Shown here in pieces: positions 8,650 to 40,109 of a stretch of 64,000 nt of DNA. The notes under the pieces are model-generated. The model was not told the DNA's origin and searched no databases. It worked only from the letters and a program-made list of their open reading frames with translations. The DNA comes from Centruroides vittatus (taxonomy: Eukaryota): assembly GCF_030686945.1 (NCBI RefSeq), contig NW_027122708.1:5802248-5866247 (forward strand), in the 5' to 3' direction. A program made the position numbers and the translations under genes. The stretch's first letter is position 1, and every line of letters begins with the position of its first letter.

Positions 8650-9768
8650 GGCGCACAAACCATGTGGAGATCAGTACCTTGGCAACTGTGTCCGCTGTCT
8701 GGTCTGGTAATGGCATTGCCTCCACCCACCTTGAAAATCGGTCAATTGCGGTAAGTAGGTACCTCGATCCTTCCGAGAGTGGTAATGGACAGACTATGTC
8801 GATGTTGATGTGCTCAAGTCGTGAATTTGGGATGAGGAACTTCAACAGAGGTGCATGTGTATGGCGATGGATTTTCAACTTTTGGCAAGCTAAGCATGTT
8901 TGTGACCATGCCTGGCAGTCTTTTTTTTTTTTATATTAGGCCAAATGTATCTCTGAGTGATCAGTTTGGAAGTAGTACGAGCTCCTGGGTGCGAGAAGCT
9001 GTGAATGGCTGAAAACACTTCCTGTCAAAAACGTGGAGGTATGTCCGGTCTACAGTAACCAGTAGAGGCGTCACAGAACAGGGACTTTGTTGAATTTGGA
9101 AGGGGTAAATTTACTATTTTACAATTTGGGTTATTTTGCAATTCTAACAGTTAATCATCCTGTTGTGCATCTGCGATGGCTTCGTAGTTTATGGATGGTG
9201 TGCCGATGGTGTTTATGCGAGACAGTCTGCTACGACGTTGTCCCTGTGGATATATGGTGTAAGTCGGTCGAAAACTGTGACACATAGTCCAATTGTCAGA
9301 GTTGACAAGGTGACGCTTTGGCCAAATCTTGGAGGACAGCAAAGGTGAGGGGTTTATGTAGATAATAAATGGCCTCCCCTCCACCAGGTGTCAAAAATGC
9401 TTGATGGCGGAATAGATGGCTAGGAGCTCCCGGTTGTATGTGCTGTATTTCATTTGAGGCTTGGTGAGAGTTCTGAAGAAAAAACACAGGGTTGTTTAAC
9501 GCCATCGAGTTCTTCATGTAAGACAACTCCCATCGCAACATCTGACACACCCATGGTTAAGGAAAGTTTAGCCTCTGGTGCTGGAGTGGGCGAGCAGAGC
9601 AGCTCTGCTTAAGGCTTCTTTCATGTTGTTGAAGGCTCAGTTTGCTTCTTCAGACCAGACAAGAGGCTTGGTGATGCTTTTGGTATGACTGATTAACATG
9701 GCGTTAAGAGAAACCTGAAATGTAGCACATCCAGGGATGAACCTGTGGTAAAAGTTAATCATTCCAAG
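8650..9768 (-). mobile_element. LTR-retrotransposon pol remnant (Ty3/gypsy- or BEL/Pao-like): RT connection, RNase H and truncated integrase
   Basis: Reading the minus strand gives [17 protein letters not shown]...[19 protein letters not shown] (the FLG.vnYYRrFIp...W.ee...AF..lK motif). RNase H follows as VSDVAMGVVLHEELDGVKQPCVFFFRTLTKPQMKYSTYNRELLAIYSAIKHF. Integrase follows as [87 protein letters not shown]. The region contains stop codons. Confidence 0.7.
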
Positions 9769-10177
9769 GTCAATTAGTAAATTTTGTGCTTTCAAATCAT
9801 GATGAAGAATTCGACGTTGATGGCAATATACTATGGCTTGTAAAATCTGATGCACATCACTCTTGACAAGCATCTTATCCATATACTGCCCAGTAGGAAT
9901 ACTGTCCAAATATTTTTTTAGGTCCATTGATAAATATTGAAAAACCAAATGCAGCTGATTTTCTTGCATAAGTACATGCTGTAAATGAATAATATTGCTA
10001 TGATTCAGTTCTTTCAACAGTGAAATTTCTCTTATGCCTGTAGATGGAACACCGCCACCTTCAATTTTCAATCTTATTTCCTTTAATGCAACTAATTGTC
10101 CAGTTCTGTTTTTTCATTTGTATACCACTCCATATGTTCCTTCTCCAATATTCTCTACTTTTATATAATCATTCATT
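9769..10177 (-). pseudogene. CDK1 (cdc2)-like kinase N-terminal fragment, intronless, in-frame TGA, fused in frame to pol
   Basis: The translation reads [135 protein letters not shown]. It carries the glycine loop, a PSTAIRE-like helix, and the HRDLKPQNLLID motif of CDK1/2. There are no introns across about 136 codons. A TGA sits where Gly21 is expected. The frame then runs directly into the pol remnant ([16 protein letters not shown]). Confidence 0.75.
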
Positions 10178-10196
10178 TCATATCTCTAATTCTTGG

Positions 10197-11215
10197 GCAT
10201 GGTCACAAACATGCTTAGCTTGCCAAAAGGTGAAAATCCATCGCCATACACGTGTACTTCTGTGGAAGTTCCTCGTCCCAAATTCACGACTTGAGCACAT
10301 CAACATTGACATAGTCAGTCATCACTCTCAGAAGGATTGAGGTACCTTCTTATCTTAGCTGACCAATTTTCAAGGTGGGTGGAGGCAACGCCATTACCAG
10401 ACCAGACAGCAGACACAGTCACCAAGGCTCTGATCTCCACATGGTTTGTGCTCTTTGGTGTTCCAACGAAGATCACAATGGATCAGGGCAGACAATTTGA
10501 AAGCCAGTTGTTCAGATCCCTAAGCAACTACTTAGGCTTTCAAATCAGCCATACCACGGCCTACCACCCCCAAGCTAACAGGCTAATCGAGAGACAACAT
10601 CGAACTCTGAAATAGCCCTGTCAGAACATCTGCAACAGGTGACCCCATGGACTGCAACCTTGCTGCTCATCTTCCTAGGTTTATGCTCGGCCATCATGGA
10701 GGACATTGGAGCATCCCCAGCCAAGCTGCTGTACGGCACTCCATTACGATTACCAGGCGAACTTCTGCTGGATTCCCCAGTCATGGAGAAGATGGAGTTC
10801 ATGCAACAGCTGCAGTAATTCCTTCGTACGTTAAGACCGTCCCCAACAACTTGACATGGGAAGCGAACAACCTTCATTTCTGAACGGCTAACAGACTGTT
10901 TGCATGTCTTTGTGCTCAATCCAGTGGCACATTGTTCTCTTCGACCAGCCTATCTTGGCCCATACCGCAAAAAGTTTTTCAAAATCAATGTCGCGAGCTC
11001 TCCTAAAAGGGTATCATTAGATAGACTAAAACCTACATTCCTTCTGAATGAAGATGCCGCCACCAGAACTCATCCTACGAGCACGGTGACACCATCAGAC
11101 TGCCAACATACATCATCACCTGTCAAGACAACTGGAAGACAAACCTCATTAAGGCACATTATCTGACCAACCATACGTTTCCTGGATATGATACACTCGC
11201 CCACTAGGGGGAAGT
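10197..11215 (+). mobile_element. LTR-retrotransposon integrase remnant with a putative polypurine tract at its 3' end
   Basis: The translation carries the integrase catalytic core and C-terminal region (RNase H-like fold plus HPQ.NG.ER motifs): [128 protein letters not shown]...LLYGTPLRLPGELL...LRPAYLGPYRK...LDRLKPTFL. This is inverted relative to the integrase at 8650-8940, and homology to it begins exactly at 10197. A purine run CTAGGGGGAAG is followed by TGTGTAGGG, which may be a PPT followed by an LTR start. Confidence 0.7.
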
Positions 11216-11516
11216 GTGTAGGGCAGAGGGTGCCACCACATGACCTTCACCCTCTGACATCACTTTGCTCTCGGACTCCAATGAAAAGAGACTTTTTTGT
11301 TCTACGCCAACCCTTTAGAGTCAACAGTAGGGTTTCTCAAACAGGATCCCAAGATCCCAGTTGTTTTTAAACCTGGGAAATTCTTCTCATCCCAGAAAAT
11401 CCCACAAAATTCTTAAAAATTCACTTTTTTCTTATTTTGTGTTAAGGTTGAGGAAATTTTGCAAATAAAAAGTATAATTAACTCAAACCATCAGAATACA
11501 TTTACAGTAGAGCGTC

Positions 11517-11931
11517 GTTTATCCGAATCAATTAAGGACTGGGGTTGTTCAGATAACCGATTTTTTCAGATAACCGATTATGTATAAAAAAATGCATTAA
11601 CCTATCCTAAATGTTGAAATTTTTCTCCATTGCGTGTCGCTTCACGATGAATTTTTCTCCGTTGCATGTCGCTTCGTGTTGAATTATTGTCGATTTTAAG
11701 CCTAACGAAAATTTTTATAATAATAATCAAAGCTATTGTATCGTTAAAAATTATTTCTTTATTGTGTACAAACAAAATAAATATATTGAAAAATATAAAA
11801 ACAAAAAAATTATACTTTAAAAGTTAATCCAGTATCAATAAAGTTCGATTCAGCACGACACAGTCCGACTGGAACTCTTTCGGATAACTGACATTTCGGA
11901 TAACCGATTTTCAGATAACGACGCTCTACTG
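11517..11931. mobile_element. Tc1-like MITE (about 415 bp) nested in hAT-like copy A; TA TSD
   Basis: The left end reads TA|CAGTAGAGCGTCGTTTATCCGAA and the right end TTCGGATAACCGATTTTCAGATAACGACGCTCTACTG|TA. Internal GATAACCGATT subrepeats are present. Confidence 0.6.
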
Positions 11932-12099
11932 TATATTTATTAATTTTAAACCTACTTATTAGTTTTTTAAATTTTTGCTTGTTATGGCATGTCACAAATG
12001 GTCAATAATCAATATGTAGCTTATTTATGGCAGGACTCTCAAAATTCTTTACCAGTAATATCTGGAATAATTGTGCTTATGCTGTCTTAATTTTTAACC

Positions 12100-12354
12100 A
12101 TGCCCGGTAGCTTCAATAACTGCGTAACGCCAAGTTGCGCAAATTGGACAAGGATACAAACGAGTACGAAGTCTGCAAGTATGAAGTTTTTCTTCATAAA
12201 CTTGATTATCAAAGTCAAACGAACTGCCGAATTATTGGGCTATAAGCTTGATGTTTCTATTAAAGCAGCCGAGATAGACAAATCAAGAATACTAGAGAGC
12301 AAAAAAGTACTACAATCTCGAAAACGAACTAGAAATCTTCCAGACTACAGGTGA
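12100..12354 (+). CDS. Conserved 84-aa ORF carried by the hAT-like family (copy A); unknown function
   Basis: The ORF reads MPGSFNNCVTPSCANWTRIQTSTKSASMKFFFINLIIKVKRTAELLGYKLDVSIKAAEIDKSRILESKKVLQSRKRTRNLPDYR. It is open and similar in all three copies (see 39269-39523 and 49164-49445). Confidence 0.3.
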   Translation: MPGSFNNCVTPSCANWTRIQTSTKSASMKFFFINLIIKVKRTAELLGYKLDVSIKAAEIDKSRILESKKVLQSRKRTRNLPDYR

Positions 12355-13384
12355 AAAAACACACAACGTCTGCCTTCTCTTAAATGCATTAAACACAATT
12401 CCACTCACATCAATTGAATTGGAAAGGGCATTCTCGGTACCAAGACTTTTCATTACTAAAATAAGAATCAGATTGAGTAATTGGAGTATTGACCAGCTTT
12501 GCTTTTTAAAAACTTATTATAAAAAGTTTACAATAATATTTTGTATTAAGTTTTATTTGAAACACAAAAATTACCTTCTAATTACAGGTTTGATCTAAGT
12601 TCATTTTTTTTTTAAATTTTCAACTCAATTCAAAGCATTTTATTATTGTTGTATCAAACTTTAATAAATTTTTTCTATTTGTGAAAATTTCTACATAATT
12701 TAAAGGTAATCTTTAATATATATCTTACACAGCATTATTAATATGATTTTGGAGGTTGCAGAACATATTAAATTACTTTAAAAAATAAAAAAATAATTAT
12801 ATCATTTGATTTCAAGATATTTTGTCTATCTTAAAAATAATTAATTCTATCCCAGAATTTCCCGGGATCTCTAGAAACAGTTCTTTTATCCCAGAACAAG
12901 CAAAGGACTGGGAAATGAGAAACCGTAGTCAACAGCATCACAGATCTCGTATTTGTACAGTAACTATTGTAAATATCTCATAACCACGACAAATAAAGTA
13001 TATTATTTGCCTGGATCAGGGTCTCAGTTAATCCTAACCAACGAAAAACAAAGAACGCAGGACACATGGTCGAGGTCGACATGGACATCAGACAATGTAG
13101 GATCAAACCCAGGCCAATACTGCCTAGCATCAAAACATGTCGCGTATGGATTTTAGCCACGCCACTAAAGCAGTGAGCCAGATGTGATGATTAAAAAAGA
13201 AAAAACTTCAAAGACAGAAATAGAGGAGAAATACGTCAGCAGTCAAGTGATCTGCTGACTTCGAGCGAGGTCACGTGACACAATGTGCAAGCGTCCGCCT
13301 CCAATGTACTACTCCATGATATAAAGAAGGTTATGCAATGGTGGCTTCCACCATGCATAATTGAGAAAGAATTAGAGATCTGAA

Positions 13385-14065
13385 ATGAATGATTATATAA
13401 AAGTAGAGAATATTTGAGAAGGAACATATGGAGTGGTATATAAATGAAAAAAACAGAAGAACTGGACAATTGGTTGCATTAACGGAAATAAGATTGAAAA
13501 GTGAAGGTGGTGGTGTTCCATCTACAGGCATAAGAGAAATTTCACTGTTGAAAGAACTGAATCATAGCAATATTATTCGTTTACAGCATGTACTTATGCA
13601 AGAAAATCAGCTGCATTTGGGGTTAATGTTACCTATGGTAGCGAACATGGCGGCTCGTCTCTGAAACAGTCGGGATGCACGTTCTAACCTAACCTAACCT
13701 ATTCTAATAAATTACCATAATTATTGCCACCCAAATTATTACAATATGGATAATTTATTAAAATAGGTTAGGTTAGTATGTGTCCCCCCACTGTTTCAGA
13801 GATGAGACGCCATGTTTGCTACCATAGGTAACATTAACCACATTTGGTTTTTGAATATTTATCAATGGATCTAAAAAATATTCAGACAGTATTCCTACTG
13901 GGTAGTATATGGATAAGATGATTGTCAAGAGTAATCTGCATCAGATTTTACAAGCTATAGTATATTGCCATCAACGTCGAATTCTTCATCGTGATTTGAA
14001 AGCACAAAATTTACTAATTGACCTTGGAATGATTAACTTTTACCACAGGTTCATCCCAGGATGTG
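13385..14065 (+). pseudogene. Second copy of the CDK1-like/pol chimera fragment, interrupted by a MITE and frameshifted
   Basis: The copy reads [67 protein letters not shown], then a 219-bp insertion, then ...[53 protein letters not shown]. It shares the same TGA after GVVYK and the same CDK/pol junction as copy 1, and diverges from copy 1 beyond FIPGCA. Confidence 0.7.
13621..13839. mobile_element. Merlin-type MITE (219 bp, about 50-bp TIRs, 8-bp TSD) inserted in CDK1-like copy 2
   Basis: The left TIR is GGTTAATGTTACCTATGGTAGCGAACATGGCGGCTCGTCTCTGAAACAGT and its inverse lies at 13790-13839. The flanks are gCATTTGG at 13613-13620 and aCATTTGG at 13840-13847. Copy 1 (9769-10177) has an uninterrupted CTGCATTTGGTTTTT at this point. 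The TIR start matches the TIRs of the 5.4 kb Merlin element at 21392-26796. Confidence 0.7.
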
Positions 14066-14897
14066 CTATGATGTATGATGTATTCATTTTGATATAGAAT
14101 AGTCCTGTCTGCACATGTTTAGTATTGTATTTTGCATGGTCTTAGGTATATTTGAATTGATTGTTTTTCGAGAGAAGTGCGAGATCCTATCGTGAGACAG
14201 TTATAACTCTGTCATAAAAGAGCACATTAAAATTATCAACATTCTCATGGTTCTAAACACCAAGTACCTTCATGGGAGAAGATAAATCACCTACGTAACC
14301 AGGTGATTGATTAGCTAAAAGCCGGATTGACTATAATCGATGAACTCTGAGTCTACAAAAGACAAAGGAGGGAAAGAACATGAGGTTCCTGTCTATCAGA
14401 AAAAATGTCATCTTACCGATCTTAACACGAGTTCTTATCGGCCTCTGACAGAACGAAATGTGTGCATGTCGGACTCTAATGAAAAGGAATAGGCCTACTT
14501 AGTGAGACACTTATGGATACAGACGTAATTGCCAGACCACTCGAAAAGCATCGGAAGAATAAAGACTGATAGAAAAACACAGAGATCTAAACTTCCGGAA
14601 ACAAGAAGAGCCACATCAATGCCAACAAACCAAGGAAATACGATTTACCTTTGAATAATACTTTAAATTTCATACTTTTTCTACTGTCATATTTTCGAGA
14701 GCAGTTATTATTTCCTTTGTACATGACCGTTATTAATAAAGTATTTTAAATATTTATTTATGAAAATTTGATTTTTAAAGCAAATTATACTTTAAATGGC
14801 AATAAATTGGTATCTCTCTAATGAGTGTTACTTACGGCCTATATATCAGTAATAAGAAATTAATTAAAAATACACCTATAGTACATTTTATGTTAGA

Positions 14898-15230
14898 TGG
14901 CTGGATGGCTGAGTGATCAAGGTGGTAGCCTACTGCTCTGGGGGATGCAGGATCGAATCCAGAATATAGATGGGTCGAAAAATCCCCAGGAATTTTTTGG
15001 GGGTGGTCTTCATAACAAACTAAGTAATTTGCCTCTGCTCTGCCAACTGGCACTACAGAGTACAAAGAGACTGTCTTAATCATAGGCATGGTCTGATGCC
15101 CAGCATCTACTGGGCCTTGGTGTCTTAAGTCGACCTGAGATAAATGCTCTGCCTCTGGTTCATGTGTAACCCAAGAGGAGACCATCGCCTTCCTTGCTCT
15201 GAAGTCCAATCATCTTACATGAACATACAT
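14898..15230 (+). mobile_element. Candidate tRNA-derived SINE
   Basis: An A-box-like TGGCTGAGTGA and a B-box-like GGATCGAATCC lie about 40 nt apart near 14905-14965. I have not checked for a cloverleaf structure. Confidence 0.3.
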
Positions 15231-15724
15231 TTTGGTGCAGCCTGTACTGCACATAGAGTTCTCTATGACTAGCTCATAATAATGGTCAGTGAGGTTCCCT
15301 CCCCTAAAAAAGGGGGCCCTGTCCAGTGTATCCACTGAGCTTATAAGTCAAAGAGACCTATCACTTTTCCATCAACTCCTTTAGTTTCTTCAAGTTTCCT
15401 TTACTAGCTGCTAGTGTTCGAGGTACTTGTTCAGAAGGCTTAGACCAGTCGACTTGGTCAGCCCCTCAGCAGAAATCTTCAGTAAGAGGAGAGTAAGTAC
15501 AGTACATAGTGCCTCGCACCACCATGAGGACATCCACAGAAACAGCTACCATCTCCTTGTTCAAACTTGCACTTAAAATGGGGAAACCTCCTATGTCTGG
15601 TCAGTATTTGCATCACAAACCAATTACAACACACTGGAGTATGGCTAACTTCAGGCACGAAGGCATAGGTTAACCTACCTACTGTACTTTGAGTCCAGCA
15701 CTCTTGCCAGTATGTCATCGGTCG

Positions 15725-16033
15725 TTGCACTAGAGCAGGGATGGCGAACCTTTTTGAGTCCGCATGCCATATTGCAAGCATACTTAGCTTTAAAGATGTT
15801 AATGCATGCCAAAGTCTTGGACTTCCAATAATGATATTTAAAGAAATTGAACAATACGCTTTAATTCAAATAAGTGTAAAAATCTGATTGAAAAAAAATG
15901 ATCAGGTGATAAACAGAAAGGATGATTAAAAAGGACAGAAATCATATGATACATTACATGCCAGATGATTTCTCTCACGTGCCACTTTGGGCACGTGTGC
16001 CATAGGTTCGCCACCCCTGCACTAGAGTACCTT
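15725..16033. mobile_element. MITE (about 300 bp) inserted in the LINE remnant; 8-bp direct repeat CACTAGAG at both ends
   Basis: The TIRs are CAGGGATGGCGAACCT and its inverse AGGTTCGCCACCCCTG. Both ends are flanked by GCACTAGAG. The insertion splits the LINE C-terminal ORF. Confidence 0.5.
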
Positions 16034-16328
16034 TTATGTATGTAGTCGAGGGTTCCACTGTCCTCATTACAAATGGGCCCCAGGCCCCTGCCTTGGCCAG
16101 TTGGTCAGTGTGCTCATTGTCCAGGATCATGATTTGGCCTCGGACCCACCTGAGGGAAACATGTCATGCATGCCTCGCCCTCAGTACCCTACCTCTGATC
16201 TTCTGTACCAACTCGTCCCTGTCGTCCCTATCGCTCAAGACCTGAAGCAACAACTGGTTGTCAGAGTAAACCATGACCAGCTCTGGATCCGGATTCACAT
16301 GATCCACTGGGACACCTTCTCGTTCAGT

Positions 16329-16352
16329 CTGACTGACTGACTGACTGACTGA
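16329..16352. repeat. (CTGA)6 microsatellite
   Basis: The sequence is ctgactgactgactgactgactga. Confidence 0.9.
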
Positions 16353-17249
16353 CTGCATGCACTCCATCAGAAAAGATGCAGTATGCAGCACCTACTAAAC
16401 TACCGTCTTTAGAGCCATCAGCGTATATTTCAACACAGATTCCTGTTGGTTCACCAACATCCCAATCTAGTCTGATCCTATGGGCTGGATGGACTCTCAG
16501 TACATCTGTCTGATGTCTAAGTCTGACCGGGTACATCTGATTGCAATGCTTAGCCTCTATACCTTCCATAGTTGTTCCATAGAAGGCTGCCTCTTGGCTG
16601 ACCACCAGAGGCAATGGCAGCAGCTCGGCCAAGACCGGGGCTGCATCCATAGACACAGCTCTGTATGCTTTCGTCACCCACAGGATGGTGGGTCTCTGAA
16701 TCGTAAGCAGCATCCTGCTCATTTTGACATTGGCAGAGTCCTTCCACCAAACACCACAGGCATAGCAGATAACATGTTCTACATTTATCTTGTAAATGGC
16801 TCTTCCCTGCTAAGACCATAATCTTGCTTAGACAGTCTCGATAGTGCTGCTATCGTGAGGTTTGTTCTGTCTCAAACACTCCTCAGATGGGGCATCCAGC
16901 ATAGCATTTGGTCAATGATAACACCGAGATACTTTAACTTGTTCACCCTTCGGATGGGGTTGTCCTGGATTCAGTATATCGGTCGGCATGCCAATACTCC
17001 TGTCTGGGCCACTGTCAGAGCCTCTGATTTCTCAGAGCTGAAGGACCGCTTATGTAGCTCTCCCCAGCAAATGAACTGTTTTATTTCTTCATTGCTGCGA
17101 ATCTCCATATCATGTCTACTAACACCTGCAACTACTAGCAACAAATCATCTGCGTAGGCCTGCAGCTAGACATTGTCTGGAAGGACAAGCCTCAGTGCCA
17201 TGTCTGCAAGAATGTTCTATAGGGGCCCTATGCATGACCCCTGGGGACA

Positions 17250-17316
17250 ACCCCTCTCCGGTTTCCTTACAAACCTGACACTTAGTGTCAGGAAACCGGA
17301 GAGGGGTTGGTACTCA
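17250..17316. repeat. 66-bp near-perfect palindrome
   Basis: The sequence CAACCCCTCTCCGGTTTCC..TGACACTTAGTGTCA..GGAAACCGGAGAGGGGTTG sits at the apparent internal deletion point of the LINE. Confidence 0.7.
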
Positions 17317-18199
17317 ACAGTGTGGTCTCTCAGGAAACTCCTGGTATGAGATATGAGGGTGGTCGGCAGGTTTGCCTTCCACAATTCACCCACTATGGAT
17401 AGCCACCAGACATTGTTGAATTTGTGTATGAAGTAATATCAAACGCTTATCCCTGTTTACTGACCGTAATTGGTCCTTGCCTAAACTCTTTCAAGTTCCT
17501 GCACATAGCACGAGCAGTTGGTACTCAGAAGAGTGACTGGTACCCAACTGCAGGCTGAACCTTTGGTCTGCGTTTGTGCAGTTGATGCACTTAGGCATAG
17601 TGGCCTTACACTCCTTGTAGGAGTGGCCCTCTGCACACTTGCTACAGATCTGAGCTGCCACTGAACAGCTCTTTGCCACGTGATTGAACCCATAACATCT
17701 GTAGCACCAAATGATAGCCAAATGTTCTCTCACCCAGTTTTGAGTCCACCCAACATGTAATTTCCCCTTCTGCAGGAGCTTGTGGTAGACCTTCAGTGAG
17801 GCCTCTAAAACCCAACCGACTAGGCCTCCCTTTTCCTTCATAGAGAAACGAGGTTGGAGCTCACCAGGCCCAACCTCGATGCTATTTTAAAACTTGATGC
17901 TCTCCACGAGGGACTCGCTCTTGATGTTTGGGCTGACATCAGAAAGTATGTCCCTTGGCCAGCGCTTTTGGGGCAGACGGCAACTAACTGCCTCTCTCAA
18001 CGCCAATGGGTCTTCCATCAATTCCTTTATGATCTTGATTGTGTCTTGGTGCTTTGTTATCTCTATCAGGACGCCACCATTGCGCACTCTTCGAACATTT
18101 TTGATCCCATCTCCCAACTTAGCTGGGTTAATTTTCGTTTTTAGCAGTAACCATGTCTGGTCACTGCTCATTATATCTTTCTAAGGGTACACCAGGAGC

Positions 18200-20650
18200 A
18201 TGTGTTCAATGGTTGGTACCCCTCTTCAGTTTAGTAACAGCCTGTGGCCCCTCTTGGTTTTGCTTCAAGGCCAGATGGACTGCGACCATCACAGTTGCTC
18301 CCCACCTTTAAGAACTGCTGATGGAAGCATATTGGGCAGTTGTCGGCCACACACGGCCTTTCTAAGAGGAAGGCTATCTTGACCACCTGGGCACCTAGGA
18401 TTGCAGCAACTTTGCTAAAGAGGATGAAGATGACTGTGCGCATATGGCCTTCTGATACCAGCTGTCAGTCTTGGCCAAGAGCTTCGTCAGCTCATCATGC
18501 ACAACATCCAATGCAGCTCATCGATCCTCAACCATTTCTAGCTTTTCCTGTGTCCCACAGGTGTCGACAAGGGTGTTTTGGCAGCTGCTGCTGTGATAGG
18601 GTCTTTTTTCCTTTTAGACCCACCCTTGTTTTTGGCAGGGGGTTTTCCCCTCTGCCATGGTCACCGCAGCTTTAGCAGATTCCCCCTTAGGCTTGTCACC
18701 TTCAGGTTTCCCCACCTTTGCTTTGGCCACCTCGTGCCGTTTTTTCCTCTGCCTGTCCCTGGCGGTGGCTGGAGCAGCCTTCCAGTCATTGTCCTCAGAT
18801 GTGGCAGTGTTAAAAAACATCCTCTTGATCAGGCTCAACCATACCATTTCGAAGCGGAGCTACTGTCCCTTAGAGGCATTGGCACAGTGAGAGCATTGGT
18901 TTGAAGCCCTTTATCCCTGGGCTCCTCGGGTGAGTCATTAGCGGGCCTACATTTCCGCAGGGTCTGCCTCTCCAGTGGTTTGGTGCTGACTGCACCTCCC
19001 TTATCCTCTCTCTGGGTTGTTGATTAGTCACCATTAGATTAGTACTTGCATCCGCCTGCACATCAATTGCACCGAAGGCAGTACTAATGCATTTGCTTAT
19101 ATCCATAGTTTTTCACCAATAAAAATAAAAAGAGAGTAAGTAGGTTGAGGTGACCATAACTTTTCACAGATGCCCAGAATTCTTTCAGGAATCAGAGTAT
19201 GCATTTAAGAGCCTACCCACAACTGGTTTGGCCCGCTGCTGGGATAGCTACCCATTTAAATGGACACCTACCCAAGGTCACCCCAGTCCAGCTGGTTGCT
19301 TGGCTTGGGCCGCCCCATCATCCCTACTAGGAAACCTTTCCATTTCCAGTTCTCCAGGCCCATATACAGCCATCCAATGCGTCGTCAGGTCTTTAAGCAC
19401 CACTCCCCCAAAGCATAGTGGAAGTTGGCCCTATGCCGAGGAGTGGCTCTGCCAACTGCCTGTCACGGTAGATATCAGTTAGCAGGATCCTGTAATCCAC
19501 AACGGACACTATCCCCCTGGCCACCAGCAAGGCTTTGGCTATGGGAGTACGACTCCTTCCCCACTGGCTTCGGCATGCAGGTTGTGGCCCCCAGGCCAGC
19601 ACTGGGTGTGCGAAGCAGTCTTCCTCCTGGGAAACTGATTTTCCTTTACCAGACAGAAGGAGCTTTACGTGGTCTGCATTACCATGGGCTAAGGCAAATC
19701 GATTGCATTCAACCATCTTTGTGTTCAAAACAACAGCCCCATGCCACTGGGGTGGACAAGTTTGCTTTGTGTGTGTCAGATTCCAGAAAGTAAGGATTGT
19801 CGGATCCATGTCCTCCAGTCTCTGTACAAATGCGGAAATTGAATCCAGAAGTTTTGGCATCCTCTGTGGCTAGTCAGGGACTTCACTCGCCAGCCCAGGG
19901 TACAGTATCCATCTCGCTTCGAGCAGATGCTTTAACCATTGCGATTAGGGGTCTCGGGACCGTTCTGCCAAAGCAGAGGGCCCCTATCAAGTGCCACCAC
20001 ACCGCAGGCCTTTGAGCGCTACACTTCCATTGGCAGAATTACCAATTTTCATCAGACAAGTCCAAATGACTGCAAATGCTCCAATCTACTTATCTCATCC
20101 GAAAACAAGATCTCCCTAGGAATCTAGTTAGTAACGGCTACAACGATCATCAAATTTTGGACTTACTGAGGGACCATTCTGGCCCTCTTATTGTCGGACC
20201 AGAGCAGATAACCGCCTCGCCTCGACCATACCAGTCTCCCTTCTGTTTTGATGTGAGCCTGCATGCCACTATGCCAAATTGCAGCTCTGTTTACCACCCG
20301 CCTGAACAGATAAGTTCCAGTTTAGGGAGATGTTAGAAACCCTGATGGGGGCCGTAGATAAGAACACAGCACATGGGCAACAAACTTCATTAAGGCCTGG
20401 TACACAGACCCAAGGCCGATGATTGTAACACCTCTGAAACCTTAGGCCAGAGTCTAAAGACTCCATCAATGGTCAAGACCAAGGCGGGACCTTCGGATCC
20501 TCTATACCACCGCTAGGCCCCCCGCCACATCCAGGCAGTTCCCTGTCTATGGGGGTCCGTCTGGATATGTCGGGCCCCATCCCTCACAGCCTGGCCACTC
20601 CATTGTGAGCATGGCTGAACCCATAATGGGCTTGCTGAATGAGGCCCTCT
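18200..20650. other. GC-rich block with overlapping ORFs on both strands; probably degenerate retroelement sequence; unclassified
   Basis: Composition shifts to about 55% GC. Many 60-155-aa ORFs overlap in all frames, and none contains a motif I recognise. An A10 run at 20676-20685 could be a retroposon tail. Confidence 0.25.
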
Positions 20651-21257: not shown

Positions 21258-22215
21258 TACTTAAATGTATAAATTGCTTTGCAAGACTAAAATTGATAAA
21301 GAATCTAATGGTACAAGATATACACATGTATAAGGATGATATGTTTTTTACATCTGTCTAAAGAAATTTTACATACTTGGTTACAAATTTTGGTTAATGT
21401 TACCTTAGGTGCCAAGATGGCGGCGCTTCCAGTCGCCACATTGGATTAGTTGGAAACTGTGCAGTATGTGATACTTTGATAGTAGATCACGTGACGGCAA
21501 GATTCTAAGACCAGATGAAGAGGTTGCCCCCAAACTGTAAACCCCCCTGTGCAAGCATAAAAGTCAAAGGAACCATACCTCTATATGTGACCCTTCGCAA
21601 GATATAGCCCTGCAAAGATGCGCCTACGTCATTTCCAGTCACAACTCCATGCCCAAAAGGAACGCGTCACACGGCCAAATTTTTTTCTTGCTTTTTCCAC
21701 CTCTTAGTGTTTAAAAAAGTGCGCACTTCCCTCTCTTAGCCCCCCAACGCGCGCCTTGCCCTCCTGTACATGCCGCCGCCACTGTCTCCCCCTTGCACGC
21801 ACCCGCAGGCCAAGTCGCCCACCTGCAGTCGTCTGGAGTCACCACCTATTGCCTGTAAAGACAAATATCTATTATTATTTCAGCTCTTACCTGAGCAAAG
21901 ACTCAAACCCCCGTTCTGGCAGGCGCCAGTCCACTTCTCTCTGCACTGGCCCACCAGGTCACTTTGCCCAAAATATTTCAGAACTCATACTTGAGGCATG
22001 CAAGGCCAAGGAACACACTGCATGATGGGCCGTCCAGGCGGTCCCACCTCAGCCAGAGATGCAGTGTGCCTGACCACACGGCCCCACCTCCGCTGCAAAG
22101 TTGAAGCAGGCCGGCTGCAGGTCACATGACCATGGCACGGCCTACTGAAGTTTTATAAGCTTGTAGCTGCCTTGGTGCCGTTGTTCCTAGTTTTACAAGT
22201 GTTTACAGGTATTTG

Positions 22216-22416
22216 CAGTACACTCAAACCTGTTTTTGTGCGGTCTATTTTTGCGTGATTTTTTATTTGTGCGATTTGTTTTGTGTGATTTTTTGTGCGC
22301 GATATATGAATTTCAATCAAATTGGTATACTGCACAAAAATAATTGCACAAAACACATTCCACGTATAAAAAATCGCACAAAAAAAGACCGCACAAAAAC
22401 AGGTTTGAGTGTATGT
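22216..22416. mobile_element. Short MITE (about 200 bp), family with TIR CAGTACACTCAAACCTGTTTTTGTGCGGTC
   Basis: The TIR at 22216-22245 has its inverse GACCGCACAAAAACAGGTTTGAGTGTA at 22389-22416. The interior is a GTGCGATTTTT subrepeat. A family member lies at 30114-30632. Confidence 0.6.
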
Positions 22417-22433
22417 TTACAATTTTTACAGTA

Positions 22434-23057
22434 CAGTAGAGCGCCGTTAACCCACGGTGATTGGGGTCCAAACTGCAGAAAGTGTATGAAAGGCAGTTTT
22501 GAGTCATACTTCCGAAAATTTTCACTTTTAAATTTTACCCCATTTTTGAGGGTCTCAAAAAGTTCACATGTAGTCATTTCGGGGGGCCTGTATCTCGCAA
22601 AGGGTCACTCGTACAGCCATGGTTCAATATTTCAGCTGCAGCTTAGGTGGTCCGCGGCTGAAATATTTTTTGATAATGCATAAATTACAATAAATGAAGT
22701 GATTTACGTTATTCTCAAATTAAAAATCATACACTGTACTTTAAATACAAGTTGATTTTTTGCGGATTTACCGCAGATTAACTTAGTAGCATAGTAAGGT
22801 ATGAATCAATTACAATGGCGGCATCCATAACGCTGACACCAGGCGTGAATAAAACAGATTAGCATTTGAATTTCATTGTAAGTTATTTTATTATTTATTG
22901 ATAAATATAAGACTAATCTTCTGTAAATACCTCTTTGAAGTTATAAGCCAGCATTTAAATATTTAATCCGCGGTAGTGCAAAATTGGGATCCAAGCTTTT
23001 TCTGCGGCTTCAGCCAATTCGCGTGTTACTGACCTGCGGCTTAACGGCGCTCTACTG
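22434..23057. mobile_element. Tc1-like MITE (about 620 bp), TIR CAGTAGAGCGCCGTTAA
   Basis: The left end reads TA|CAGTAGAGCGCCGTTAACCCACGG and the right end GCGGCTTAACGGCGCTCTACTG. A 120-bp internal segment (22505-22630) is repeated directly at 25935-26055. Confidence 0.55.
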
Positions 23058-23126
23058 TCTTTGCAGTATTTTACAATCAGTATTTTACAGTATTTGGAGT
23101 ATTTGTATTTGGCCTGTATTTGTATA

Positions 23127-24777
23127 ATGCCATTCACGTGTGACATGTCAGCGTCTCCCGTTTTGGATCCCGACGACATATTTGAAAACATAACATCGTA
23201 CGCATTTCGTACCTACCTCCCCACCGAAGAGGCCGCCCAGAAATTTTGTCATCTTGTGGGGCTCGTGCCACATCCAGACCTCACCGGTTCCATTCCACTG
23301 TGCCCTCGTTGTGGAGGTAAGCATCGCTTGATTCCTGCATGTACACTACAGTACAGGAACAGCCAATATTCGCGGCGCTACTTTTCTAAGCCGTTTCAAT
23401 GTGTTTGTCATAATTTTGCAGGCCTGATGCAAAAGGAACTGGCTCCACCTGAGAGGTTCGATTTATCTACTGCTGCGAAAAACTGAAAGAAAAGAAAACA
23501 GTTTGACGACGGACAGGCGGCACCTTCCAGAGCGCCGTGTGCACCGGTAGCCTGTCATGTACCCACAATACATTCTTCGACGGGGCGAGACTTTCAGCGC
23601 AAGTATGATATTACAGTCGATCACCGATTTCTGTAATTTGATCGTGCTGATTACGATGACGTATCTATAACAGATGTGTTTTGTTTGTATTTTACAGGTG
23701 CTGACTTTGATATATTCATGGGTCATGCAGCTGCCAGTCACCATTCCCTCGGAGCAATGTCGCGTGGCCCTTGTGACAGCGGTAAATTGGTACAACTTCT
23801 GCTGGGAAGTTGCGGAAGTTTTTGTCTCCCATGCTCAGAACATCCAGCTTGGCGGTGAAGGATTGCACATCGAGGTGACCGTCAACCCACGTTGCTGACT
23901 TTGCCGAAATGTCTGTCTATATTACTTTTTTTTTTTTCTTTCTTTCAGATCGATGAGACCTTCACCCGGAGGCGAAAATACAACCGCGGCTGCGTAGGTG
24001 TAGGCACCCAAATTACAATATTTAGTGCCTACTGTTGGGAAACGTGAGAGCTGATGCACTGGCATGTAAGTAGTAGCGAAACATTACTTCCTTTTATTGT
24101 TTAGTTATCGTGGAAAACACTGTCCGGCAGACATTGGCGCATTTTAGACGTGTTATATTTTCTTGTATTCTTTCAGGTGGACAACAAAAGCAGACGTGTT
24201 CTGTGGAGCCACATGCTCAGATACATCGCTCCAGATTCCATCAGTTTCCAACAGCATGGCCCAGTATCGCGGTTGTGCAGCTTTTTTGGGCTTCTCTGGA
24301 CATAACATCGTCAACCACAGTCGGCGGGGCCCCGGGAGGTAAGAAAGCATGAAACTGTGCTATGTGCTAATTGAAAGAAATGGACGGGCATTATGGAGAA
24401 GCGACATTTATCTGTTTTTTCTTTTTTTTTGTAGATTCGTAGACACAGATGATCCCGAGGCCCATACTCAAAACATTGAGTGCAGAAATAGCTGGCTGAA
24501 GAAGTCCATAAAGTCGCTCCACACGGACAGGAGCCTGCAAAGCTATACCTGCAGTTACGTGTACAGGACGCAGTTCCTGTCCCAGTGGCCAACAACATTG
24601 GCCAAATTCTGGCAGTTTCTACAGGACAGACATCATGGCCGTCTACCTGGGTCCCGGTCGCCAGGGTCTCGAACTCCAGACGATCGGTGCGCCTGTGGAT
24701 CAACATCTGCTGCCAGACATGCCCTATTTCGATGTTCCCGTGCAAGAGGGCGACAAAGAGGAACGGCAGGGGGATGA
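23127..24777 (+). CDS. Merlin/IS1595 (ISXO2-like) transposase gene with spliceosomal introns; at least partly degenerate
   Basis: Recognisable exons lie at 23127-23316 (MPFTCDMSASPVLDPDDIFENITSYAFRTYLPTEEAAQKFCHLVGLVPHPDLTGSIPLCPRCGG; donor G|GTAAGC), 23698-23874 (VLTLIYSWVMQLPVTIPSEQCRVALVTAVNWYNFCWEVAEVFVSHAQNIQLGGEGLHIE; acceptor TTTTACAG, donor GAG|GTGACC), 23949-23993 (IDETFTRRRKYNRGC), about 24172-24336 (..VFCGATCSDTSLQIPSVSNSMAQYRGCAAFLGFSGHNIVNHSRRGPGR; donor AG|GTAAGA), and 24431 to about 24777 (FVDTDDPEAHTQNIECRNSWLKKSIKSLHTDRSL...). The exon-1/exon-2 join and the 23994-24171 interval need frameshifts to stay in frame, so this copy is probably a pseudogene. Confidence 0.55.
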
Positions 24778-25220
24778 CGACCGCCCAGTGAGTAGTGCAG
24801 CCTGTGTGTAGTGCACGCAACCAAATGATACTTCTTGGCGGATGTGAAACCTGGATTATGTGATTTTTCAGACAACATTGAGCGCCACCACCACCACCAC
24901 CTTCGTCATCGACCCCCAGGACCTAGCCGAGGCAGGGACCAGTGGCCTCACCCCGTCCTCACCTACAGAACATCAGGAACAGGCTAGGCGTCGCCAGGTA
25001 GCGAGAGGACGACGTCGTGGGAGAAGCAAGAGGAGACGCTGTTAAAGGTGAGTGCAGAATCTGTTTTCTTGCCCTTTTCCATCGGTAGTTAGAATGTGTT
25101 AGAGATAGCAAAATAGGGTTTAGATGGAAGCAGAATAGAAGACATCTGATGTTCGAAAAGCATTGCTCTTTGCAGCTTTGAGTGTTAACGCAAGGAAAAG
25201 TTTTTATGTCGAGGATTTCG

Positions 25221-25308
25221 TTAAAGGCTTGCCCAATGTGGTTGGTATGGAATGGGTGCCTAATCTCAACATCCATTCTATACTAACGACATTGGGCAAG
25301 CCTTTTAA
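25221..25308. other. 88-nt hairpin of about 33 bp with G:U wobbles and a 14-nt loop (pre-miRNA-like); function unknown
   Basis: The stem TTAAAGGCTTGCCCAATGTGGTTGGTATGGAATGG pairs across the loop GTGCCTAATCTCAA with CATCCATTCTATACTAACGACATTGGGCAAGCCTTTTAA. All mismatches in the inner stem are G:T, meaning G:U pairs in RNA. Confidence 0.3.
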
Positions 25309-25332
25309 CCAACAAGAAGAATGCCCAGCAAG

Positions 25333-25361
25333 CAGTGAAGCTTGTGTGGTGTGTGTGTGTG

Positions 25362-25395
<34 letters not shown>

Positions 25396-25408
25396 ATATA
25401 TATATATA
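25333..25408. repeat. (GT)n followed by (AT)n compound microsatellite
   Basis: The sequence is gtgtggtgtgtgtgtgtgttgtgtgtgtgtgtgtgtgtgtgtgtgtgtggatatatatatatatatag. Confidence 0.9.
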
Positions 25409-27832
25409 TATAGTGCGCGTGACTGAAGGATACTTGTATGCGAAACCTGGATTATATGCGATTGTTCGGACACCATCTTTGTCGTTGTCGAACTCCAGGA
25501 CATAGCCGAGGAGGCGGCGGTGACCGGTGACCTCACCCCGTTCTACACAAGATCGGAAACAGGCTAAACGTTGTCAGGTAGCGAGAGGAGGAGACTCTGT
25601 CGAAGGTGAGTGCAGGATCTGTTTTCTTGGCCTTTTCAGTAGTTAGAGCATGTTAGAGATAGCGCGAAATAGAAGAAGCGCACTCTATTTATGTAGGAGC
25701 AGCGTCGGAGAAAGCGTTGCCTAATTAGTCTTGTTAATCGGGCTTTTCTTTGGCCTTTGCCGACGAGTATCGTTAGAATAGGGCTTGCTGCCTGTTAAAC
25801 GCGCGACAGGCTTAGCGGAGAGAGCGGAGCGAGTTCCGACGGCACTCCCCGGAAGTGGCACCCTCGTGTTTAGGGGGTTTTTAGGAGTCTCTAGTAAGTT
25901 GTAACAGAAAGCGTTCTAAATGCAATTTTTAGTTGTACTTGTGAAAATTTTCACTTTTAAATTTTACCCCATTTTTGAGGGTCTCGAAAAGTTCACATAT
26001 AGTCATTTTGGGGGACCTGTATCTCGCGAAGGCTCGCTCGTACAGCCATGGGTTCATTAGACTTTTTTATTCCTATCAGTATGATCTACAGCTCTGTTAA
26101 GGTCCCAACCGCGTCATTCGGACCTGTAATTGTGCCGAATAGGTTAAGTTAGTACAAGCATCCCCACTGTTTCAGAGACGAGCTGCCATTTCGCTACCAT
26201 AGATAACATTAACCCTAATTTTCAAGCACATTTATAGGCATTATCATTATCATGGTCCTAACCTAATTTGAAATATTCAATTTCCATTAGCTAATAGAAT
26301 TTATGGGCTGGTACAACCTAACCAAAATTCCATCGGAACTTAATTCTACAAAACTCATTGTTGCAGTATTAGCAAAAAACTAAAAAAAAAGTTAAAATTT
26401 AACAACAAATTTTGATGATATTTAATTCAACTTTTCAAATACTATCGTTTAAGAAATATATATTTACCTATTTAACTTCTTGGAAAAAAATATTGTAAAA
26501 AAAGAAATCAAATGTTCCACTACACATACAACGCAACACCGTCAGTGTAGTCTACCTACATGTTAATTTGCATAATTCCACGATAAACAACCATCTAACG
26601 TCATCTAACTCCATACAACGTCAAATCTAACAAATTTGCATATCCGTTCACGATCACATTTTACGTCACGTTCAACGTATTTTCAAATTTCGTCACACTA
26701 TTAACAGATAGCTCCCTCTATCATCAGTACCTCGCGTGACTCTATTTCGAGATTACCAGAAGCGCCGCCATCTTGGCACCTAAGGTAACATTAACCGAAA
26801 TTTTTAATACTGCTTTTTAATCTTAGAAAAATTTTTTAAAAAAAGATTTTTATAAATATTACATGCCTTAATTGAAAAAATACTTGCTTTGTAATCTTTA
26901 TAAAAATCTTTTTTAAAAAACTTTTCTAAATATTACATACCTTAATTTTTTCAATCTTTCTATTTTTGTTAGTGAGATTCCGAATCCGCTTTTTCTAAAA
27001 ACAGGCTACGCCAACTCGAAATTTCCGTACATCTAGTTTGTAATAAGCAACCAATATATAAATACATAAACAGTATACTAGTATCAAATGGACATTACCT
27101 GATGTAAAAGTTTTTTAACTAAAAATTTTTAAGAATTGTTCATTGGATCCTTTTGTGCTTAGATGTGATATAATTTGTTTTTTAGCATTTACAAATAAAA
27201 TAACAAAGTATACTAGTTTGTGTTTAACAAGTAAGTCTTACTTTACTAATTAGACATCGTTACACGACATTAATAAGACTTGCTTCCGCTTTTCGTGGTA
27301 ATGCGGTCTAATACAAATTTGCATATCTTTATGAAATACAGTAATTTGTTTCACAATTTTCGTTTTCACGATCATATGTTTCGATGTTTCACGAAGCATA
27401 GTTAAACCAGTTTTTATTTTAATATTAAAATGTATTTTACAAGACATTTAACCAGTTTTCGTTTATTTTTATGCTCAAATTTTTATTAATATAATTTTTA
27501 GCTTTAAGATTTCAAAACTTTCTTTAAATTTTTTACTATATATGTTTTTTCTTTATGTAAAATTTCAACATTAGACTTATCGATATTACAGTTATTCGTT
27601 AAACAGTGATCGTGGAAAACGGAATTTAATCTATTGTATTTTAGGCCAGCGATGTGTTCTTTTAATCTTATACTTGATTTTCGTCTTGTTTCTCCTATAT
27701 AAGATTAAAAGAACACATCGCTGGCCTAAAATACAATAGATTAAATTCCGTTTTCCACGATCACTGTTTAACGAATAACTGTAATATCGATAAGTCTAAC
27801 GTTGAAATTTTACATAAAGAAAAAAACATATA

Positions 27833-29029
27833 CAGTAAGGCCCCGCTTAACGCTGTTTCGGTATTACGCGGTAGTATTGGAATTCCCCGAGATCGCACGC
27901 AGTGTTGGGATCAAGGCGTAATATCAAATTTTAAAGCTTATTATCTGCGGCGGACATTCCGACAACTGATTGATAAAATAGATGGAGCAGATAAACAATC
28001 CATTAGAGATTTTTGGAAAAGCTATATCATCATGGATGCTGTAGACAACATCAATCTTTCCTGGAATGAGGTGACCGAGAAATGTTTGAAAGGAGTGTGG
28101 AAGAATGTATAGCCGGAGCTAAGCAAGGATGTTGACACAAGAGAATCTATTGTTGATGTCGATGAAATTGTCAAGCTAGCTAATGAAACAGGGTTGGATA
28201 ATATAAATGCGCAGGATATTGAAGAATTATTGCAAGTTACAACTGGAGAAAGTTTTTCCAACGACGCTCTTAAAGAATTAGAACAACAGGTGCATAAAGA
28301 TGACGAAATTAGTGTTTCTAAAGATGAGGAACAAAAGGTTCATCATCTTTAGATGGCTTTCTACGGCTTTTCTAAAAAAAAGTTTAGCTACTATAACGGA
28401 AATAATGGATCAGTTTATACAAAATGATTTCAATTTTGATAGAAGTTCAAAGGCAAGACGAAGTGTCATAGATGCGATGTCTTGTGATCGACAACCGCTT
28501 GCTGAACGAAACAGGAAAAGGCAAACGACGTTAGCAGTAGCGCAGCGAGGGGTGTATCATCCACCGGGCACCATTCTCAGAGGGGCGCCCAAATCGTCTC
28601 CAAGACAAACTATATGTGTTTCTGGAGGGGGAAGAGGGGCGCCAATAAAGTGTCGGGCGCCAGTTATGTTCGCTACGCCACTGGACGTTAGATGACTTCT
28701 TCACAAAGGAACAAAAGATGTCAAATGAGGAAGAACCTTCCTCATCACAAACATAAAAAAAAAAGTTCGAGTAAAGAAGTTATTTTCATGAATGTTTTTT
28801 GAATAAATTTCGATATTAGCAATAAATAAGTCTATAATTAATGTAATAAAAAAGTATTTAACAATAAATGTTACAAAATAAAACAAAAAAAAACTGATAA
28901 ATTTTCTTATTCTCTGTTCTGTTTCACTATCCCCCTTATTTACATGTTAAGATGACCCAGTTTAACGCTGTTTCGTTTAGCGCTCTGTCATCTAGGAACG
29001 CATCCCTCGCGTTAAGCGGGGTCTTACTG
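27833..29029 (+). mobile_element. Tigger/pogo-like internal-deletion derivative (about 1.2 kb) with 22-bp TIRs and TA TSD, inserted at the centre of the foldback
   Basis: The left end reads TA|CAGTAAGGCCCCGCTTAACGCTGTTTCG and the right end CGTTAAGCGGGGTCTTACTG|TA. The host sequence reconstructs to ACATATA|TAGTAAAA, which matches the opposite arm. Internally it encodes a pogo DDE transposase C-terminal region (..SWNEVTEKCLKGVWKNV.PELSKDVD...VDVDEIVKLANETGLDNINAQDIEELLQVTTGESFSNDALKELEQQ...FLKKSLATITEIMDQFIQND..). Confidence 0.7.
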
Positions 29030-40097: not shown

Positions 40098-40109
40098 GTG
40101 GGGATTAAT

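Follow-up and report, generated by a model that had tools for sequence, protein, structure and literature searches.

A 64-kb stretch of DNA from the scorpion Centruroides vittatus (contig NW_027122708.1, positions 5,802,248 to 5,866,247; hereafter the window) contains two copies of a chimera in which the first part of a CDK1-like sequence is joined to pol sequence of a Ty3/gypsy retrotransposon. The two copies lie head-to-head, 3.2 kb apart. Copy 1 is on the minus strand, and the stretch that it has in common with copy 2 (9723-10194) comprises a truncated 5' untranslated region (5'UTR), CDK1 codons 1 to 137 and the first 45 nt of pol. Copy 2 is on the plus strand and matches copy 1 over 13367-14068 in a local alignment, with its parent-derived 5'UTR starting at ~13357. 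It consists of a 5'UTR-derived stretch (ATAATTGAGAAAGAATTAGAGATCTGAA, 13357-13384, seen in a four-way alignment with the 5' regions of the parental genes L001 and L002 described below), intron-less CDK1 codons 1 to ~78 (13385-13620), CDK1 codons ~81 to 137 with the first base of codon 138 (13848-14023, ending in LLID) and 45 nt of Ty3/gypsy pol (14024-14068, with tblastn placing pol 1-16 at 14023-14070). The two CDK1 pieces are separated by a miniature inverted-repeat transposable element (MITE) with its target-site duplication (TSD), the left copy of which is counted in the first piece. The initial annotation had the feature begin at 13385; this position is indeed the ATG, but the similarity reaches upstream to at least 13367 and the 5'UTR to ~13357.

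Local alignment of the reverse complement of 9300-10500 against 13000-14400 gave 451 identical nucleotides out of 471 aligned, arranged in four colinear blocks of 86, 157, 32 and 196 nt. These blocks pair 10194-10109, 10108-9952, 9951-9920 and 9918-9723 of copy 1 with 13367-13452, 13457-13613, 13841-13872 and 13873-14068 of copy 2, respectively. Relative to copy 1, copy 2 shows 4 extra nt at 13453-13456, a 227-nt insert (13614-13840 in the alignment) that equals a 219-bp element plus one copy of its 8-bp TSD, and a 1-nt gap after 13872. The similarity between the copies ends at 13367/10194 on the 5' side and after 14068 on the 3' side. Self-BLAST recovered both pieces at ~95% identity with E-values far beyond chance and showed no third copy of the chimera in the 64-kb window.

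The in-frame TGA that follows GVVYK is codon 21 in both copies, at 10116-10114 in copy 1 and 13445-13447 in copy 2. The junction between the two partners, AATTTACTAATTGAC C/TT GGA ATG ATT AAC (LLID/LGMINF, with the slash marking the break; junction string ACTAATTGACCTTGGAATGATTAAC), is also the same in both copies, to the nucleotide, and lies at 9771-9766 in copy 1 (break 9768/9767) and at 14020-14025 in copy 2. The proposals that copy 2 repeats the CDK1-like part together with its in-frame TGA and that the LLID junction is common to both copies are thus borne out by the pairwise alignment, in which the copies are related across the junction and the TGA positions agree. Divergence ~35 nt into pol, as first proposed, was an underestimate, the shared pol measuring 45 nt (15 codons).

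The best protein matches to the conceptual translation of the chimera were proteins named 'cyclin-dependent kinase 1-like' from C. vittatus and Centruroides sculpturatus, with 85% identity, and the next were CDK1 of horseshoe crabs and molluscs; Pfam detected Pkinase in the CDK1 part (E = 3e-30). As outgroup parents we used two intron-bearing CDK1-like genes from C. sculpturatus, L001 (KZ494966) and L002 (KZ494660), whose exons show 92-97% nucleotide identity to both copies. In both parents the copied region holds three GT-AG introns, after codons 12, 65 and 106, which in L001 measure ~72 nt, ~590 nt and ~4.4 kb. All three introns are missing from both copies, which are colinear with the spliced sequence. 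Given this absence and the match to the exons, the CDK1 part, comprising 5'UTR and codons 1-137, is a processed copy of a CDK1-like gene. Diagnostic sites place the L001-type paralogue closer (12 sites versus 4). No C-terminal CDK1 sequence was found anywhere in the window and neither copy has a poly(A) tail, the CDK1 part stopping within coding sequence at codon 137, where it is fused to pol. A template-switch chimera would not be expected to have such a tail, the lack of which speaks against a classical processed pseudogene. L001 and L002 are themselves CDK1-like paralogues with identical intron positions, and further CDK1-like proteins of Centruroides are represented by P0004 and P0006; the presence of several such paralogues is consistent with retained CDK1 duplicates in scorpions.

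Only copy 1 continues into pol beyond the common stretch. This continuation (8653-9722, minus strand) reaches from the reverse transcriptase (RT) connection and RNase H through the integrase zinc finger to halfway through the integrase core, where it breaks off after STWFV. Pfam found RT_RNaseH_2 (PF17919), RT_RNaseH (PF17917), Integrase_H2C2 (PF17921) and rve (PF00665) in this order, and several stops and frameshifts are present. The nearest relatives of this pol are spider Ty3/Tf2-type polyproteins (~43% identity, E = 1e-77). The BLASTP alignment with P0136 begins exactly at the L of LGMINF, which is aligned to ...LRKF-LGLLNFYRRF. Since the pol homology starts at that L, the fusion joins CDK1 up to D137 to gypsy pol from the RT connection onward; gag, protease and the N-terminal part of RT are absent from the chimera, and CDK1 codon 137 joins pol directly. 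At this point the parents read GAC CAG AAA GGA ATG ATC AAG and the chimera GAC CTT GGA ATG ATT AAC. For the pol of copy 2, self-BLAST and tblastn found no continuation of this family after its 45 nt elsewhere in the 64-kb window.

The 5' end of copy 1 is abutted by an integrase fragment of the same family on the opposite strand (10195-11166, plus strand, ending in a stop codon), identified with Pfam and tblastn. Its first 256 nt form an inverted repeat of 8912-8653, with 24 substitutions, 9 of them at CpG sites, and one 4-nt indel.

We polarised the changes in the CDK1 part by aligning the spliced sequences of L001 and L002 with both copies after removal of the MITE, which gave 408 ungapped coding positions. 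Thirteen substitutions are common to both copies and absent from both parents (shared-derived), and 8 (+2) are private to copy 1 and 8 (+2) to copy 2. The shared-derived set consists of D2N, K9N, G21* (GGA to TGA), K34E, E38K, D41G, E42G, A48G, V64I, D68H, R75Q, P131A and one synonymous change. As 12 of the 13 are non-synonymous, the shared branch shows no trace of constraint. The changes are not differences between species, because C. vittatus and C. sculpturatus have the same residue in their proteins at each of these sites. These results support the descent of both copies from one chimera that was already broken by the TGA before it was duplicated. The initial annotation had reached the same view, that the chimera was a pseudogene when copied, and the 13 shared-derived substitutions, which include the TGA, together with the same junction uphold it.

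Comparison with the parents also assigns the length differences to their lineages. At codons 21-26 the parents read GGA AAA AAC AGA AGA ACT. Copy 1 has a private 3-nt (AGA) deletion at codons 23/24, and copy 2 has a private additional A in the A-run at ~13448-13454, so that what had been described as a 4-nt insertion in copy 2 is actually a 3-nt loss in copy 1 and a gain of only 1 nt in copy 2. The 1-nt deletion described for copy 2 is confirmed by the parents as a private loss in its A7 run (after 13872). Copy 2 further carries two private stops, a TGA at codon 11 (13415-13417) and CAG to TAG at codon 98. Its 5'UTR also preserves ~10 nt of parental sequence (ATAATTGAGA) that copy 1 lacks, so that copy 2 cannot stem from the present-day copy 1; neither of the two copies, as they stand now, gave rise to the other.

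The element that interrupts copy 2 is a non-coding hairpin MITE of 219 bp (13621-13839) with termini GGTTAATGTTACC...GGTAACATTAACC (5'-GG...CC-3') and no open reading frame (ORF). Comparison of its terminal inverted repeats (TIRs) showed that 47 of the outermost 50 nt match between the arms, with similarity extending to ~80 nt, and the DNA folds into a near-perfect hairpin (-78.4 kcal/mol, z = -20.7). The element is flanked by a left (GCATTTGG, 13613-13620) and a right (ACATTTGG, 13840-13847) TSD copy, the latter matching the former at 7 of 8 positions. Copy 1 has this target site intact, as has exon 3 of both parents, and it reads GCATTTGG or, in L002, GTATTTGG; relative to these three empty sites the insert is exactly 219 + 8 nt. 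As the site is empty in copy 1 and both parents, the MITE was inserted after the duplication, in the copy-2 lineage. The ends of the element, its 8-bp TSD and its timing after the duplication are secure. On both counts this agrees with what was first noticed, namely a 219-bp MITE with an 8-bp TSD in copy 2 and an insertion later than the duplication, the latter now read from the parents as well as from copy 1. The exact empty-site control thereby defines the ends and the TSD of a MITE family not otherwise characterised here.

Four further termini of this family were counted in the window, with GGTTAATGTTACCT... at 21392 (plus), 26214 (minus) and 26796 (minus). The 8-mers that flank them are CAAATTTT (21392), CTAATTTT (26214) and the GAATTTT-type GAAATTTT (26796), with a mutual match of 7 of 8. 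A piggyBac (TTAA) reading of the GGTTAA terminus was ruled out by the lack of TTAA in the empty site. Rfam microRNA matches to the MITE (24-42 bits against gathering thresholds of 70-140) reflect the hairpin only.

The initial annotation had called this MITE Merlin-type. Merlin elements are defined by 5'-GG TIR ends, TSDs of 8-9 bp and a DDE_Tnp_IS1595 transposase, and Merlin transposases are plentiful in C. sculpturatus, from which 48 Merlin sequences have been reported (PMC8101967). With termini GGTTAATG...CATTAACC and an 8-bp TSD, the MITE agrees with both structural features of the definition, and it resembles the MITEs of the Merlin superfamily (Feschotte 2004; PMC8101967) in its 5'-GG...CC-3' termini, long TIRs and 8-bp TSD. 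In contrast, GGCAAGATTCTA... forms the ends of both the window's Merlin element and L004, its relative from C. sculpturatus, and apart from the GG these ends show no similarity to the MITE; no transposase-bearing element with the TIRs of the MITE was found within the ~140 kb of scorpion DNA searched. The structural side of the label therefore stands while the expected likeness to the TIRs of a transposase-encoding element was not found, and the label, which draws on termini and TSD only, is compatible but unproven.

The Merlin element in the window is decayed (21496-26136, termini GGCAAGATTCTA...AATTGTGCC) and is flanked by ends belonging to the GGTTAATG MITE family; in the window it lacks its own TSD. 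Its transposase remnant (23127-24985) was detected by tblastn of P0121 (E = 9e-102), which carries PF12762, and the stitched translation from the remnant matches PF12762-bearing Centruroides proteins (E = 8e-130). L004 (8520-11983) is a homologous C. sculpturatus Merlin with a perfect 9-bp TSD (CCAATAAGA). We considered a 5.4-kb element with GGTTAATG termini (21392-26796) as the autonomous partner of the MITE and withdrew it, as the transposase belongs to the inner element at 21496-26136, which has its own GGCAAGATTCTA termini. It is the comparison with L004 that assigns the transposase to this inner element, and the enclosing GGTTAATG ends are therefore not established as its TIRs. Pfam reported nothing on the raw and stitched translations of the 5.4-kb region.

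Directly 5' of the copy-2 5'UTR lies the 7-mer ACCATGC (13350-13356, plus strand). It recurs at a distance of 2 nt from the 5' terminus of copy 1, and there it corresponds to native integrase sequence (GCATGGT) read in antisense; the native sequence that holds it, GGCATGGTCAC, also occurs in the other integrase copy. The chance of a shared 7-mer at such positions is ~0.012. Outside the CDK1-derived part, the copies have in common at most these 7 nt upstream of the 5'UTR and the 45 nt of pol.

Downstream of the integrase stop at 11166, the spacer contains in order a purine run, AGGGGGAAG (11206-11214), TGTGT (11215), a hAT-like insertion, AATAAA, ACACA (13062-13066) and TGG (13067-13069), and copy 2 lies ~290 nt past ACACA/TGG. 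We regard 11206-11327 plus 12936-13069 as a candidate gypsy long terminal repeat (LTR) with TGTGT...ACACA ends, split by the hAT insertion. The context around this single candidate LTR, which resembles a polypurine tract (PPT) and a primer-binding site (PBS), would imply a tandem or circle-type arrangement. Self-BLAST revealed no second copy of the candidate LTR, no recurrence of 11215-11327 or 12936-13366 and no LTR pair in the window. Similarity between the candidate LTR and the sequence downstream of copy 2 was no better than in shuffled controls, and a tRNA-like or PBS reading of 13067-13180 was unsupported by ARAGORN and Rfam. By eye, 13067-13180 (minus) and 14890-14960 (plus) look like the heads of tRNA-derived short interspersed elements, with the B-box-like motifs GGGTTTGATCC and GGATCGAATCC; ARAGORN and Rfam (E <= 1) report no tRNA there. 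The repeat at 11328-12927 was also considered as an LTR and is instead a non-autonomous element of hAT-like type; its termini are TAGGG, its 8-bp TSD (GTCAACAG) is perfect, and it carries a further insert of ~430 bp (11504-11933). Its family occurs at 11328-12927, 38941-40099 and 48821-49897, with termini TAGGGTTTCTCA...GAGAAACCGTA and a hATC-like remnant (ERAFS..RL).

Taken together, we consider it very likely that the two copies are what is left of one chimeric retrocopy, in which a Ty3/gypsy RT fused the mRNA of a CDK1-like gene to pol, and which decayed and was then duplicated. The processed origin of the CDK1 part, the parent gene and pol families, the identical junction, the derived lesions common to both copies and the place of the MITE insertion in the order of events are shown by the data, and we infer RT template switching as the mechanism of the fusion. 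In the scorpion, a Ty3/gypsy RT would have been copying pol RNA in the 3' to 5' direction and, at the RT-connection region, would have switched template to a CDK1-like mRNA and continued to the 5' end of that mRNA. The product would have been an intron-less CDK1 5'UTR with codons 1-137, in frame with pol (RNase H, integrase). This chimera would never have been functional and would have gathered the 13 shared substitutions before its duplication, including G21 to TGA and P131A in the catalytic loop. A segment with the whole CDK1 part and both junctions would then have been copied, giving the head-to-head pair. Copy 1 would afterwards have acquired its 3-nt deletion and its own substitutions and lost ~10 nt of 5'UTR, and copy 2 would have acquired two more stops, the +1 and -1 frameshifts, its own substitutions and a cut-and-paste insertion of the MITE that duplicated GCATTTGG.

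As to how the second copy arose, we favour a local DNA-level inverted duplication (fold-back or template-switch), which we give about an even chance. It is favoured because ACCATGC 5' of copy 2 is the reverse complement of the integrase joined to copy 1, and because the 256-nt integrase stretch is present twice in inverted orientation, in the pol of copy 1 and at the start of the spacer. The 7-mer may be a relic of microhomology at the inverted junction. The layout of the locus runs from an antisense arm (STWFV back to the CDK1 5' end) through sense integrase, LTR-like sequence and a leader-like stretch to CDK1 with 45 nt of pol. This fits an inverted duplication via ACCATGC/GCATGGT after which copy 1 lost 9-10 nt and the right arm was cut short, and it also resembles aberrant reverse-transcription products.

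Several points weigh against a single gypsy-made retrocopy as the origin of the pair. An 8-nt CDK1/pol identity, GGAATGAT, adjoins the junction, but it is 3 nt out of register and is therefore not a simple crossover point; by analogy with P0136 (...KF/LG...), the microhomology at the exact crossover would be no more than 1-2 nt. Neither copy is demonstrably flanked by LTRs: copy 1 is preceded on its 5' side by antisense integrase, and the LTR-like features 5' of copy 2 (AGGGGGAAG, TGTGT...ACACA, AATAAA, TGG) come without a confirming second LTR. The enzyme could conceivably have been the RT of a long interspersed element (LINE). The flank that copy 2 shares with copy 1 is too short and does not fit whole-element re-transposition without further deletions. 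Finally, no other copy of the junction was found in the collections searched (protein matches, exact-ORF look-up and metagenome contigs): no chimeric protein was among the protein matches of the translation, the exact-ORF look-up returned nothing, and the metagenome contigs contained neither the junction 25-mer nor the terminus of the MITE.

The main competitor to an inverted duplication, possible but doubtful, is that the chimera retrotransposed a second time in the manner of a non-autonomous LTR element and that the resulting copy 2 was later truncated. Secondary retroposition with identical switch points is documented (PMC5131818), and copy 2 sits ~290 nt downstream of the end of the candidate LTR (ACACA, TGG), where the retrocopy of a pseudo-element would be expected, with the candidate LTR itself preceded by integrase, the purine run (11206-11214) and TGTGT (11215). 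Whole-element re-mobilisation is nevertheless less attractive because the pol of copy 2 stops only 45 nt past the junction and never resumes in the 64-kb window. Moreover, the candidate LTR has no second copy, no tRNA-complementary PBS was verified for it, and a PPT-LTR-PBS order around a single LTR requires a tandem or circle intermediate. The shared ACCATGC, which in copy 1 is native integrase in antisense, points instead to a junction made at the DNA level.

Other explanations question the common descent of the copies or the meaning of their likeness. Gene conversion between two older inverted copies could have imposed their similarity at a later time, the TGA included, in which case the lesion would not date the loss of function. 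We consider this unlikely: inverted copies 3.2 kb apart offer a favourable geometry, and the CDK1 arms differ by 4.2% against 9.4% for the integrase overlap, but ~9 of the 24 integrase differences fall at CpG in a GC-richer segment and the divergences are similar without them. Private changes are evenly spread along both copies, with no pattern of conversion tracts, and a single origin of the junction would still be required. RT switching can recur at preferred sites, and a recurrent site is mentioned in PMC5131818, so that the copies might represent independent switches at a hot spot between the same parent gene and element. This is extremely improbable in view of a junction identical to the nucleotide and of 13 shared-derived substitutions, including a nonsense mutation, that are absent from both parents, 12 of which alter residues identical in the CDK1-like proteins of C. 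sculpturatus and C. vittatus. The idea that the second copy is an assembly artefact, arising from collapsed or duplicated haplotigs, has practically no probability left. Regions rich in transposable elements (TEs) are prone to misassembly, and nothing specific speaks for it here; the copies are ~4-5% diverged, opposite in orientation and set in different flanks, they have private stops and indels, and only copy 2 carries a MITE flanked by a TSD. As the second copy has the same junction, the junction itself is biological and not an assembly error.

If transcribed through, the head-to-head pair could act as a hairpin small-RNA locus against functional CDK1-like genes, through endogenous small interfering RNAs (endo-siRNAs) or PIWI-interacting RNAs (piRNAs), although we hold this to be very unlikely. 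The inverted arms are ~470 nt long and 95% identical, they are set among TE fragments of mixed orientation together with a vasa-like pseudogene piece, and each copy contains 5-8 stretches of 21-68 nt that match a given parental mRNA perfectly. Analogues of such a locus would be the endo-siRNAs made from pseudogenes in mouse oocytes and the piRNAs made from retrocopies.

The vasa-like piece (8275-7855, minus strand) is a C-terminal fragment of a vasa/DDX3-like DEAD-box helicase, with a Pfam match to Helicase_C and Drosophila vasa as the best match among solved structures. It has an in-frame TGA in YVH*IGRTGR. It lies on the strand of copy 1, ~310 nt past the point where the integrase is cut off, and represents either another piece of a host gene caught in this mosaic or the remains of an exon. 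Further along, 15500-20000 forms a GC-rich block (49-50% GC versus ~30-35% elsewhere) with an RNase H-like ORF at 16324-16722 (minus; ...IYADGSKDGSLVGAAYCIF...), and this block is probably a LINE. A palindromic MITE-like repeat at 1389-1680 (within 1389-1908) is 86% self-complementary, and a copy ~83% identical to the repeat at 1389-1908 is present in the large intron of L001 (4216-4609). Further MITE-like palindromes in the window lie at 22219-22413 and 27533-27838.

The fusion is a further example of known LTR-mediated chimeric retroposition and is a non-functional relic. It provides a chelicerate example, clean and datable, of a probable switch of RT template from a gypsy element to a host mRNA, in which the parents as outgroup give the order of events: fusion, decay including the TGA, duplication, and then private decay with the MITE insertion. 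It has no bearing on the function of CDK1, and nothing in it is unexpected for a TE-rich arthropod genome. Other precedents for LTR-type chimeras are maize Bs1 and the Ty cDNA chimeras of yeast. In LTR-mediated retroposition, partial mRNAs replace internal ORFs of the element and secondary copies share their switch points (Tan et al. 2016, PMC5131818). The chimera in the window resembles these retrocopies in that a partial intron-less mRNA is fused to internal element sequence with part of the ORF missing, in that more than one copy has the same switch point, and in being non-functional. It differs from them in that no LTR pair was found in the window, that the 5' side of copy 1 is antisense integrase and not a sense leader or gag, that the microsimilarity at the exact junction would be no more than 2 nt, and that the second copy is a ~480-bp fragment and not a whole pseudo-element.

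Two other systems share part of this picture. As in the chimeric retrogenes made by LINEs, the 5' partner of the chimera reaches approximately the 5' end of the mRNA, as expected for RT run-off, whereas no poly(A) tail or TSD was identified for the chimera itself. Copy 1 and the sense integrase together look like the product of LINE twin-priming, a 5' part in inverted orientation being followed by a 3' part in direct orientation with a 256-nt overlap, but the direct part seems to run through PPT-LTR-like sequence, which is unexpected from a simple element RNA. Inverted duplications produced by fold-back or microhomology during replication template switching likewise have two inverted arms, here with a 3.2-kb spacer and a 7-nt inverted microhomology at the junction, and the 256-nt integrase stretch, present in the pol of copy 1 and at the start of the spacer, is also found twice in inverted orientation. 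The locus differs from these duplications in that its right arm is now only ~480 bp long and that the junction at copy 1 requires an extra deletion of 9-10 nt.

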